NCBI GenBank assembly: GCA_001662655.1 | Contig: KV460220.1 | Direction: 5' to 3' (one strand) | Length of the DNA stretch: 64,000 bases | DNA from: Pseudogymnoascus verrucosus | Taxonomy: Eukaryota | Part shown: positions 777 to 4,064 of the stretch, one piece after another | Layout: each line of letters starts with the position of its first letter | Position numbering within the stretch: the first letter of the stretch is position 1 | Translations under genes and position numbers: made by a program | The notes under the pieces: model-generated | Databases searched by the model: none | Seen by the model: the letters and a program-made list of their open reading frames with translations, nothing else | What the model was told of the DNA's origin: nothing

Positions 777-1865
777 CTAGAGCTCCTCCATCGTGCCGGC
801 TGCTTCGTCGTTGTCGTCGGAGCCGAAGGAGGCGACAGAGGACATGTCGTCATCGTCGTCGGACTCGGCGCCGTTGTCGTCGATGGCTTCGCGAGTGGCG
901 TATTTGGAGACGTATTCTGGGTGTGTTAATAGCTTGTCCACACTGCGACTTGCGCCGCGACGAATATATTGGTGTGATATAGTGGAAAAGCGCAGCGTAC
1001 CTTTGACCTTCGCCTCATACGTCTTCGGCTCGCGCATAAGCAACGACGCAGCCTCACCATTCAACGGATCCGTAGGATTCGGGTAACGCAAGAGCTGCGG
1101 CAGGAAGACCTCGAAGATATTGATCATATCGAACATGGGCGACCAGGTCTGGTTTATGACGTCGAGGCAGACAGAGCCGGATCTATTTGCCGCCATCAGT
1201 TTTGGCCCAGTAACGACGATTACGGGGGGTGTACTGACAGCTCGTCGATATTGGGGTGGAATATCCTGTTCACGAAGCCGATGCTTGGGCTCTTGTAGGG
1301 GTATTGGTCGGGTAGCTCGACGTGGATCTTCCAGAGTCCGCCTTGGAATGGGGCTGTAGGTTGGTGTCAGGATGTTGTCTCGGGCGAATGGAGGGATTGC
1401 ATGGGTAGAACTCACTTTCTTCGGGTCCCTTGAAGCGGACATAGAATTCTTGCCTGTGCCTTGTAAGTCGAGTATTCTGAGTTGGAAAGTCATGGATGGT
1501 TGCGCGTACACTATAAATTGTCAGCGATGTCGGTTGAGAGGGGCGGCGGTGCCAATGCGGGGTAGTAGATAAAGACTCACTGTTGTCATTGACAAGAGTA
1601 ACCTCATAGTCGCTCATAAGCCTATCACCAAGCGTCAGTATTATCAAGGGGCATGTCGATTCACAGAGCAGGTTCGTACATCCTGCGAGTATGTTAGCAG
1701 GTGTGCATAAGTGAGTGTCGCTTGGACAGTCGTAGCGAAGGCGGTGGGACAGAGGAGGCGCATTTACTTCATAACCTTATCATACAAAGTCAGCAAGGGA
1801 CACAACGATAGTACTTGATCATGCCAACTCACATCAGTCTCTATCCTCCTCCTGGGGCTGCTCAT
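777..1865 (-). CDS. UBC8: Ubiquitin-conjugating enzyme E2 (Ubc8/UBE2H orthologue), 9 exons, 186 aa
   Basis: Exons 1865-1833, 1775-1768, 1682-1680, 1621-1581, 1510, 1453-1416, 1353-1239, 1182-1001, 916-777 (561 nt) give [44 protein letters not shown]...[24 protein letters not shown]...; HPN motif, catalytic Cys, acidic tail; all introns GT-AG. Confidence 0.95.
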
Positions 1866-2958
1866 CTTGGCGTTTGCTCTTCGGCCGCACCGCCACCCAC
1901 AGCTGGTCCTGGTCTTGTCCTGAGTTTACGGCCTTGGGGGATATATGTTCTAGCTATTCGACTCCTTCCTTGGGCCAGGCAGTATATTGCTCGTCTCCTC
2001 CGTATAGTTTAGATTCTTCGTCGCTTTGATCGCAGTGCAGTGGCGGAGTTGTTATGCGCTCAAAGGATGATTTCGATCTGGACCGGGTGGAAGGCGAATT
2101 TCTGGTGAATCACTGACGGACTGCTGAGTGAGACCCTGCTTTGAAGGGTACACGCTAGATTCTCGAGGTACGATGCGATAAAGTCGAAATAGGGCTACGA
2201 AGCTGGGAATATGCTGAAGTTTAAGTATGCCAGTATGCAGTAGTATGTAGTATGAAGGTATGAAGGGGTCTGAAGTCTGAAAGATGAGGGGATGGTCAGG
2301 TTACGTATGGAAACCCAGGTACCGTGTCACTGGCTGTGAAAGCCCATGTCTCGTCACTTCACCAGACAGATCGGGTATGGCTTGGCGCATTTTGAGGCAC
2401 GAGATCTGGTTCGTTGGTGGGGCATTGGTGGGGGTTCGTTGAGTTGAGTTCACCAAAAGGAAAGTCGTAGTGTATGTACCTCCGTACCCTTGTAAGCGGC
2501 GGTGTTCTCCATCCCACCACATCCCACCCTATCCCACCAACAACGTCCACAGCAGGATGTGGCGTGCAACATAGAAATAACTGTGTAAATTGGTTATAAC
2601 ATTATGATAATTGATATATTTGAATACTCTACAATATGAATAGATCAGAGCAAACCATAACACTTCACATAAACCACATAGCAGAGTAAAACTGTTTACT
2701 GATCAGGAATTAATTTCATAAGCCGCCGGTTCGGACATACCATACCCCAGCCTCGGTAAACTGGGGACTTGTCCGAAATAATCTCTCCCTCTCCACGCCG
2801 ACCCAGATGTGCGCTGCATTCTCTATCACGACCTTCACTTTTTCAGACATGAAAAGGCAACACTCTTCCGCCTGAACAATGGCAGCCTCTGACTCAGATC
2901 CTCTTCCTTCCATCACCGCATTTCCCACAAGCAATCCCCACAACGCCAGCCCCAACCA

Positions 2959-4064
2959 ATGTCTCGAACCACCATCCTGAGCTCGCGTGCTCTCACTTCT
3001 CTCTCCTCTCTATCATCCGGAGTCTGCAGACCAGCTTCATTTGCCGCTCGTCCGCTGCTCTCGCAATTACAATGTCGGAATAGCTCGCATTCGCCCATGG
3101 GCGCCGCGGTGGCGTCACACAGAAAGAAAGTCACAATAAATACACTGCGCTCAATGCGCAAGAAGGGGGAACCCATAGCCATGATCACGGCGCATGACTT
3201 CCCCAGTGGACACGTTGCCGACCATGCTGGCATGGACATGGTCCTCGTTGGCGACAGTCTTGCCATGGTAGCCCTGGGAATGGAAGACACCAGCGAGATA
3301 GTGTTAGAGGACATGCTCCTCCACTGCAAGTCCGTCGCACGGGCTACCAAGACAGCATTCACAGTAAGTTCAAAAAGCAACCAAACACAAAACAAAATGT
3401 ACACCGCTAATACCCTCTTTTCCAGATCGGCGACCTCCCTATGGGCTGCTATGAAATCTCCCCCGAACAAGCCCTCGCCAGCGCCATCCGCGTCATCAAA
3501 GAAGGCCGCATGCAAGCAATCAAGCTCGAGGGCGGCCTGGAAATGGTGCCCACAATCCAGAAGATCACCGCCGCCGGCATCCCGGTCCTCGGCCACATCG
3601 GCCTAACCCCCCAGCGCCAGAATGCCCTGGGCGGATTCAGAGTCCAGGGTAAGACTGCTGCCAGCGCAGTCAAGGTCCTGCACGATGCTCTTGCCATCCA
3701 GAAAGCGGGGTGCTTTGCTGTCGTTGTGGAAGCTGTACCAGCGGAGGTCGCGGCGTTAATCACGGAGCGGCTCGATATCCCTACCATTGGTATTGGCGCA
3801 GGCAGTGGCTGCTCTGGTCAGGTGCTGGTGCAGGTCGATATGGCGGGGAACTTCCCGCCAGGCCGCTTCCTGCCAAAGTTCGTGAAGCAGTATGGAGATG
3901 TTTGGGGCGAGACCAAGCGGGCGATAGAGTCGTATAGAGATGAGGTGAAGAGCAGGGCGTACCCGGCGCAAGAGCACACATACCCGATCTCCAAGGATGA
4001 GCTCGAGCAGTTTGAACGGGTTCTGGCTAATACTAGCAAGTCCAGCTTTGGTGGGCCGGAATAG
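2959..4064 (+). CDS. panB: 3-methyl-2-oxobutanoate hydroxymethyltransferase (ketopantoate hydroxymethyltransferase) with mitochondrial presequence
   Basis: Motifs ITAHD, LVGDSLAM, GDLPMG, IKLEGG, GHIGLTPQ, PTIGIGAG, PKFVKQY; one intron 3364-3425. Confidence 0.95.

Follow-up and report, generated by a model that had tools for sequence, protein, structure and literature searches.

A single thymine at position 1510 on the minus strand of the window (the whole 64,000-nt stretch of DNA that was analysed) is very probably a true internal exon of a UBC8-type gene, lying between two complete GT–AG introns and splitting the codon for Met29. The base stands between an AG and a GT, each of which is part of a complete intron, and frame arithmetic and comparison with orthologues show that it is needed both for the reading frame and for a conserved methionine. 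A sequence-only reading of this DNA had proposed that the base is an obligatory exon that provides the middle letter of the methionine codon in VNDN-M-QEF, and this proposal is upheld by RNA contigs, cDNA-like contigs, conservation in related loci, and the arithmetic of the frame.

The gene, encoded on the minus strand at about positions 1866–777 of the window, specifies an E2 ubiquitin-conjugating enzyme. Two of its exon translations match the Pfam family UQ_con (PF00179), with scores of 53.3 and 48.1 bits that exceed the cut-off of 27, and the translation of the UBC8 model contains both an HPN motif and an active-site cysteine, the roles of which are well established in E2 enzymes. Several Pseudogymnoascus species have proteins that match the 60-residue exon carrying the active-site cysteine at 100% identity, and the best protein matches are named by their sources as "E2 ubiquitin-conjugating protein ubc8," "Ubiquitin-conjugating enzyme E2 8," and "E2 H." These matches point to a UBC8/UBE2H-type E2 of a Pseudogymnoascus-like fungus (Leotiomycetes), with the name ubc8 taken from the names of the best matches. 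When the window is translated straight through, the product is closer to the P. verrucosus model than to the P. destructans model.

With the one-base exon included, the gene model is an open reading frame of 561 nt, equivalent to 186 codons and a stop codon. The thymine (1510, minus strand, as are all features of the gene) is flanked by a 41-nt exon (1581–1621), the last base of which is the A of the methionine codon, and by a 38-nt exon (1416–1453), which begins with the G of that codon; pieces of RNA contigs cover 1581–1621 and 1416–1454, respectively. Farther downstream, a 62-nt intron 6 (1354–1415) precedes a 115-nt exon from the middle of the UQ_con domain (1239–1353; PF00179, E = 1.1e-12; also covered by RNA contigs), and a 56-nt intron 7 (1183–1238) separates this exon from the 182-nt exon that encodes the active-site cysteine in ...SGSVCLD... 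(1001–1182; PF00179, E = 2.9e-14). An 84-nt intron 8 (917–1000) leads to the last coding exon (777–916), which by its translation encodes an acidic tail and closes with a stop codon at 779–777.

At the junction itself, the upstream exon (...GTCAATGACAACA) ends at 1581 in ...GACAACA and is followed by the 70-nt intron A (1511–1580), which extends from GTGAGT to GCTGACAATTTATAG and contains the donor GTGAGT, the branch-like sequence GCTGAC, and the acceptor TATAG. The thymine at 1510 comes next, and after it the 56-nt intron B (1454–1509), which extends from GTACGC to ACTTACAAGGCACAG and contains the donor GTACGC, the branch-like sequence CTTAC, and the acceptor CACAG. The coding sequence then resumes at 1453 with GCAAGAATTC. 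When the sequence was read again, the coordinates, lengths, and signals that had been quoted for 1454–1580 in the sequence-only reading all proved exact. Joined in this way, the exons encode ...VNDN-M-QEF..., as in correctly built orthologues.

Two consequences for the frame had been predicted in the same reading, and both are confirmed by calculation: removal of 1580–1454 as a single intron causes a frameshift (560 nt, remainder 2), and so does retention of the second intron alone (617 nt, remainder 2). Retention of the first intron alone shifts the frame as well (631 nt, remainder 1), and early stops follow if either intron alone is retained. Retention of both introns, a case absent from that reading, gives an in-frame, stop-free insertion of 42 codons. 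Folding of the minus-strand RNA between 1440 and 1595 yielded no structure that bridges the splice sites (z = +1.09; 175 of 200 shuffled sequences fold at least as well).

Transcript evidence was drawn from four sequencing runs, which were aligned as assembled contigs to positions 700–2000 of the window. Two of the runs (X1 and X5) are RNA by guess, one (X8) is labelled as metatranscriptomic RNA, and the fourth (X19) is DNA-like. X19 covers 30 of 30 bins, introns included, shows no joints, and does not differ from the window within 1504–1516; because it covers introns without joints, it was taken as DNA of a close relative. The RNA contigs also come from close relatives and not from the strain of the window, and differences such as those at 1426 and 1594 are common to them and X19. 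Every intron of the model is gone from the contigs of X1, X5, and X8, including introns A and B, both of which are present in X19. The ordinary joints in these contigs run from 916 to 1001 (84 bases skipped), from 1182 to 1239 (56 bases), and from 1353 to 1416 (62 bases) and correspond to introns 8, 7, and 6.

At the one-base exon, the contigs join 1454 to 1581 with 126 bases skipped, as observed in two contigs of X1, one of X5, and one of X8. Since 126 bases are skipped and not 127, one letter stays between ...AACA and GCAAGAA.... On the plus strand, positions 1454 and 1580 are both C, and the right-hand piece of the alignment starts at 1581 with an ambiguity of 3. Had the kept letter been the G of either intron end, the start would have been 1580 and the ambiguity 4, so the letter must be other than G. 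The pieces covering 1416–1454 agree with this assignment, in that they have two mismatches, and the only one listed outside the joints is 1426. For a diverged X1 contig, alignment failed over the 38-base exon and the sequence was hence reported letter by letter; its 39 letters between 1353 and 1581 read T followed by GCAAGAATTC... on the minus strand. The kept letter is thus known as non-G, by inference, in the best-aligning contigs; direct readings of T are confined to the diverged contig and the cDNA-like metagenome contigs. The mature RNA of these relatives holds exactly one base between the flanking exons, both in the contigs of X1, X5, and X8 and in the comparison of a cDNA-like contig (L007) with a genomic one (L022). 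Half-spliced forms were looked for in the contigs of the four runs and none was seen, with the qualification that contigs drop rare forms. It is important to note that contigs demonstrate the presence of the spliced form and give no proportions, splicing efficiency, order of intron removal, or rare isoforms.

Conservation was assessed by scanning metagenome contigs with the 60-residue exon, which returned 80 loci, 75 of them with both flanking exons. These 75 comprise 12 cDNA-like loci, with no intron in the region examined, and 63 genomic loci. ATG is found at the junction in all 12 cDNA-like contigs, with no extra codon. The pattern A/GT..AG/T/GT..AG/G occurs in 55 of the 63 genomic loci, which represent 42 distinct sequences and 35 clusters; the conserved AG-N-GT for which the sequence-only reading had advised a search in related loci is therefore present, as AG-T-GT. 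The arrangement is not universal: one genomic locus (L011) has intron A only (A/GT..AG/TG), and seven (L035, L052, L066, L074, L080, L032, and L058) have no intron in the methionine codon, most of them retaining other introns. Intron B alone is kept in none of the 63 genomic loci.

Chance accounts poorly for the pattern, since AG-T-GT with neither half shorter than 40 nt is found in 35 of 35 clusters, compared to a mean of 1.07 of 35 and a maximum of 5 in 1000 shuffles. Beyond the signals, the introns of the clusters cannot be aligned, and their lengths range from 46 to 87 nt for the first and from 50 to 86 nt for the second. For intron A, a YTRAY sequence lies 5–40 bases before the internal AG in all 35 clusters (shuffle mean 10.3). 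For intron B, YTRAY precedes the final AG in 19 of 35 clusters (shuffle mean 9.4, shuffle maximum 19); clusters without a strict match have CTTAC- or CTCAC-like sequences by eye, and the best candidate in the window is CTTAC. The idea that intron B has unusually weak donor hexamers was dropped, as those of the ordinary introns 6 and 7 in these loci vary to a similar degree. A direct comparison of spliced and unspliced forms is offered by the cDNA-like L007, which has no mismatches to the 41-nt and 38-nt exons of the genomic loci L022 and L021, both with AG-T-GT. A second pair, L049 and L053, agrees less closely.

In the best-supported model, the Met29 codon is split by introns after its first and second bases, and both introns are removed by ordinary GT–AG splicing to give ...AAC-ATG-CAA.... 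Each of the short introns (46–87 nt) would be recognised on its own, that is, by intron definition. Introns A and B would be removed in succession, because only one base lies between the intron A acceptor and the intron B donor; two spliceosomes could hardly act there simultaneously, also because the branch site of intron A is about 10–25 bases from the donor of intron B. Either order would produce the same mRNA. The sequence-only reading had argued for ordered sequential splicing, of which non-simultaneous removal is a reasonable part; a fixed order goes beyond what the contigs display, as no intermediate was seen in them and the product would be the same either way. Guo and Liu, in the part of their article that concerns APC11, also argue for sequential intron removal (PMC4674806). 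The one-base exon may have no function of its own and may be a relic of two adjacent intron positions, retained because loss of either splice signal breaks the frame ahead of the catalytic cysteine.

Other ways of joining the flanking exons have to be weighed against this model. A single intron could be excised from a donor located 4 nt downstream (GTCTTT at 1576) to the acceptor at 1454, which would create the junction AACAGTGAGCAA and the protein sequence ...NDN-SE-QEF.... Such a transcript would be in frame (564 nt) with one extra residue, and the equivalent choice was made in public models of two other fungi, P0109 (...NDNSKQEF) and P0102 (...NDNSTQEF); the "ST" of the latter, from Cenococcum, is exactly what the +4 donor gives in L034, a locus whose core is 100% identical to Cenococcum. 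The RNA contigs speak against this path, as all three spliced runs skip 126 bases and not 123, and none of these runs was seen to have a joint whose right side falls at 1577. Moreover, all 12 cDNA-like contigs read ATG with no added codon, the methionine is conserved in correctly built orthologues, and the GT at +4 is missing from 10 of the 35 clusters, so that the path is not conserved; we regard use of this donor as highly improbable. Least credible of all is a reading in which neither intron is removed and the two are translated as 42 added residues, the form taken by the public P. destructans model. The insertion is in frame and free of stops, and models P0019 and P0023 read through it, but the 126 bases are missing from the RNA contigs of three runs, and neither the length nor the sequence of the insert is conserved among loci (introns of 46–87 nt, unalignable), the splice and branch signals being conserved instead. 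Nor are 42 stop-free codons unusual, with a chance of about 0.13 if codons are used equally. The frame of the insert is probably a product of chance, and a minor isoform that includes the insertion is conceivable.

Preference is accordingly given to splicing of both introns with the thymine kept, and it can be asked whether the arrangement serves regulation. The sequence-only reading had suggested an NMD-linked switch, in which slow or conditional removal of one intron would generate frameshifted transcripts that are degraded, thereby tuning the level of the E2. Single-intron retention indeed shifts the frame and brings early stops, the signals of intron B are weaker than those of intron A (a strict branch sequence in 19 of 35 clusters versus 35 of 35), and the arrangement has been kept over long evolutionary time. 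However, the cost of losing a splice site explains this conservation more simply, the same protein persists in eight lineages from which one or both introns have gone, and intron B has donor hexamers at least as strong as those of the adjacent ordinary introns. The contigs contain no half-spliced form, which is weak evidence given that rare forms drop out of assemblies. The suggestion therefore stands unsupported, and a switch of this kind appears unlikely. It is also unlikely that the AG-T-GT exon and its 3- and 8-nt neighbours have been retained, from a time before Pezizomycetes separated from the other filamentous ascomycetes, for their usefulness and not only for the difficulty of losing them. 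Under that view, the forced succession of intron A, the stronger, and intron B, the weaker, would act as a kinetic gate; half-spliced, frameshifted transcripts would be destroyed, which would set the amount of this E2, an enzyme serving the glucose-induced-degradation ligase.

The neighbours in question lie closer to the start of the gene. The coding part of exon 1 (1833–1865) begins with the ATG at 1865–1863, ends in ...GAT, and is defined by its translation and by RNA contig coverage; it is followed by the 57-nt intron 1 (1776–1832; GTGAGT...AG), which is missing from the RNA contigs. Between exon 1 and the 41-nt exon, the RNA contigs have 11 letters, of which 2 are aligned and 9 are listed as unaligned, the latter appearing as extra letters at the joint of exon 1 to 1621. 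The 11 letters are accounted for by an 8-nt exon, GTTATGAA (1768–1775), which is also backed by related loci, and a 3-nt exon, GAT (1680–1682), which also fits the frame, each situated between its own GT–AG introns. The two are separated by the 85-nt intron 2 (1683–1767; GTAAAT...CGCAG), and the 58-nt intron 3 (1622–1679; GTACGA...GATAG) follows, both delimited by their splice signals. The sequence-only reading, which had recognised the one-base exon, had missed the 3-nt exon of UBC8 that the RNA contigs reveal as GAT at 1682–1680. In all, five introns divide the first 125 or so coding bases into segments of 33, 8, 3, 41, 1, and 38 nt.

Omission of the 3-nt exon would remove the second methionine of ...VMKM-LMSD..., a residue that is kept in 8 of the 12 cDNA-like contigs and is leucine in the other 4. 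The 8-nt and 3-nt exon pair is the sole GT–AG solution in 21 related loci and in the window. Five loci have a single 11-base exon in place of the two, and one has the 8 bases joined to exon 1; among the 8 comparison loci without the one-base exon, 3 have all 11 bases as a direct continuation of exon 1. The target string of the two exons had no solution in 4 loci, and exon 1 is off the contig in 9. In public models, the 8- and 3-nt exons are replaced by translated sequence from part of the next intron, giving ...VMKMYEPAL....

Gene predictors, as the sequence-only reading had anticipated, miss the one-base exon. Of 54 proteins read, 44 are named Pezizomycotina models, and 41 of these are wrong at the junction, including all 11 from Pseudogymnoascus. 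The correct ...NDN-M-QEF... is found only in Peltula, Psora, and Gaeumannomyces among the 44. The errors take at least five forms: the second intron is translated (...NDN-MY...), both introns are translated, the 38-base exon is skipped (...NDN-TPF...), the +4 donor is used, or the start is placed downstream. Models that read through as ...NDN-MY..., from Pseudogymnoascus, Diplocarpon, Lachnellula, and Lasallia, display the T followed by GTA. Among the 120 matches listed, 38 contain both flanking peptides, and 23 of these 38 have them joined by exactly M, nearly all being unnamed proteins from short contigs or proteins from groups outside Pezizomycotina. The wrong models either lack part of the E2 fold or contain a translated intron, and such errors propagate through protein databases. 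With its run of 8-, 3-, 41-, 1-, and 38-nt exons, the gene could be used as a stringent test of gene predictors and RNA-seq aligners.

The taxonomic spread of the arrangement was estimated from the best matches of locus translations to named proteins; the protein is very conserved, and labels below about 95% identity are weak. One-base-exon loci match Wilcoxina at 98.7% (L019; Pezizomycetes), Cenococcum at 100% (L034; Dothideomycetes), Alternaria at 99.4% (L006; Dothideomycetes), Lignoscripta at 96.8% (L038; Lecanoromycetes), and a Mollisiaceae protein at 99.4% (L021; Leotiomycetes), and a further locus matches P. destructans at 94% (Leotiomycetes). Weaker matches of 85–90% carry Sordariomycetes-like and Eurotiomycetes-like labels, which are weak. 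The loci L052 and L066, intronless at the site, match nothing named above 81%. The comparison reaches as far as Pezizomycotina. By parsimony, we infer from these best matches, rather than from a tree, that the arrangement would predate the split of Pezizomycetes from the other classes. The smallest possible exon thus occurs in a conserved, expressed gene of many distant filamentous fungi, not of one genus.

One-base exons are already known in plants, Fusarium, and Coprinopsis, and the phenomenon itself is no longer new; the description "very rarely documented" in the sequence-only reading is somewhat overstated, with cases published for plant APC11 and VPS55, Fusarium CYP621A, and 13 genes of Coprinopsis cinerea. 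The present case is set apart by its host gene UBC8, a T in place of a G, the 3- and 8-base exons nearby, and, most notably, the spread over several fungal classes. A search of a limited literature collection returned no paper that ties UBC8 to a microexon, a stwintron to a ubiquitin-conjugating gene, or a micro-exon to Pezizomycotina.

The plant cases, as presented in the passages on a single-nucleotide exon of Arabidopsis APC11 (PMC4674806) and on conserved 1-nt microexons of plant APC11 and VPS55 (PMC8831610), resemble that of UBC8 in several respects: one base lies between complete GT–AG introns and is needed for the frame, the arrangement is conserved across a large clade and missed by annotation, and some lineages have lost the base together with the introns. 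The UBC8 case differs from these plant cases, as they are described in those passages, in being fungal, in its introns of 46–87 nt, in its E2 host gene, in the position of the T inside a methionine codon, and in the proximity of 3-nt and 8-nt exons. Closer in taxonomy is the one-base exon of the Fusarium P450 gene CYP621A, described in the relevant passages of PMC12940212 as having been found via out-of-phase exon boundaries; it, too, is a Pezizomycotina exon with a conserved AG-N-GT and support from public RNA. According to the same passages, the base in CYP621A is a G (AGGGT) that fits both splice consensuses, in a rarely expressed gene of one genus (PMC12940212), whereas UBC8 has a T (AGTGT), is a housekeeping-type gene, and has best matches in at least four classes. 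The claim made there for CYP621A as the first fungal case (PMC12940212) conflicts with the long-read annotation of Coprinopsis cinerea, passages of which count 13 one-nt exons in 13 genes (PMC12230235). That annotation likewise indicates that exons of 1–3 nt recur in fungal genes and that their omission breaks gene models (PMC12230235). Unlike the UBC8 case, it concerns a basidiomycete, and these passages give counts without gene names or conservation (PMC12230235).

Stwintrons of Pezizomycotina, as portrayed in part of PMC5587772, also entail two consecutive splicing reactions in one short region, and intron positions one base apart are known in Pezizomycotina from passages of the stwintron literature. 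In a stwintron, a splice signal of the external intron is split by the internal one, and nothing between them is kept (PMC5587772, in the same part), whereas both UBC8 introns are intact and the base is kept. A stwintron reading of the UBC8 site was rejected, as both introns have their own intact signals and the T is kept in RNA. A zero-length recursive site was also considered and rejected, since the T lies between AG and GT and is retained in RNA. Ratchet points of recursive splicing keep no base and serve very long introns, whereas UBC8 keeps one base and its introns are tiny. Recursive splicing at ratchet points is nevertheless stepwise in a similar manner, with the first splice placing the upstream exon beside a new donor, as outlined in the pertinent passage of PMC4674806.

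More generally, UBC8 offers a natural and widespread test case for how the spliceosome deals with a donor that follows an acceptor after a single base, in organisms whose genes are easily replaced. The breadth of conservation, together with the near-universal misannotation, makes the exon of note to specialists in splicing and in fungal genomics. Outside the UBC8 gene, long open frames on the plus strand at about 2893–4064 mark a divergent neighbour gene, probably with introns, which we take to resemble a ketopantoate hydroxymethyltransferase by its motif ...VGDSLAMV....
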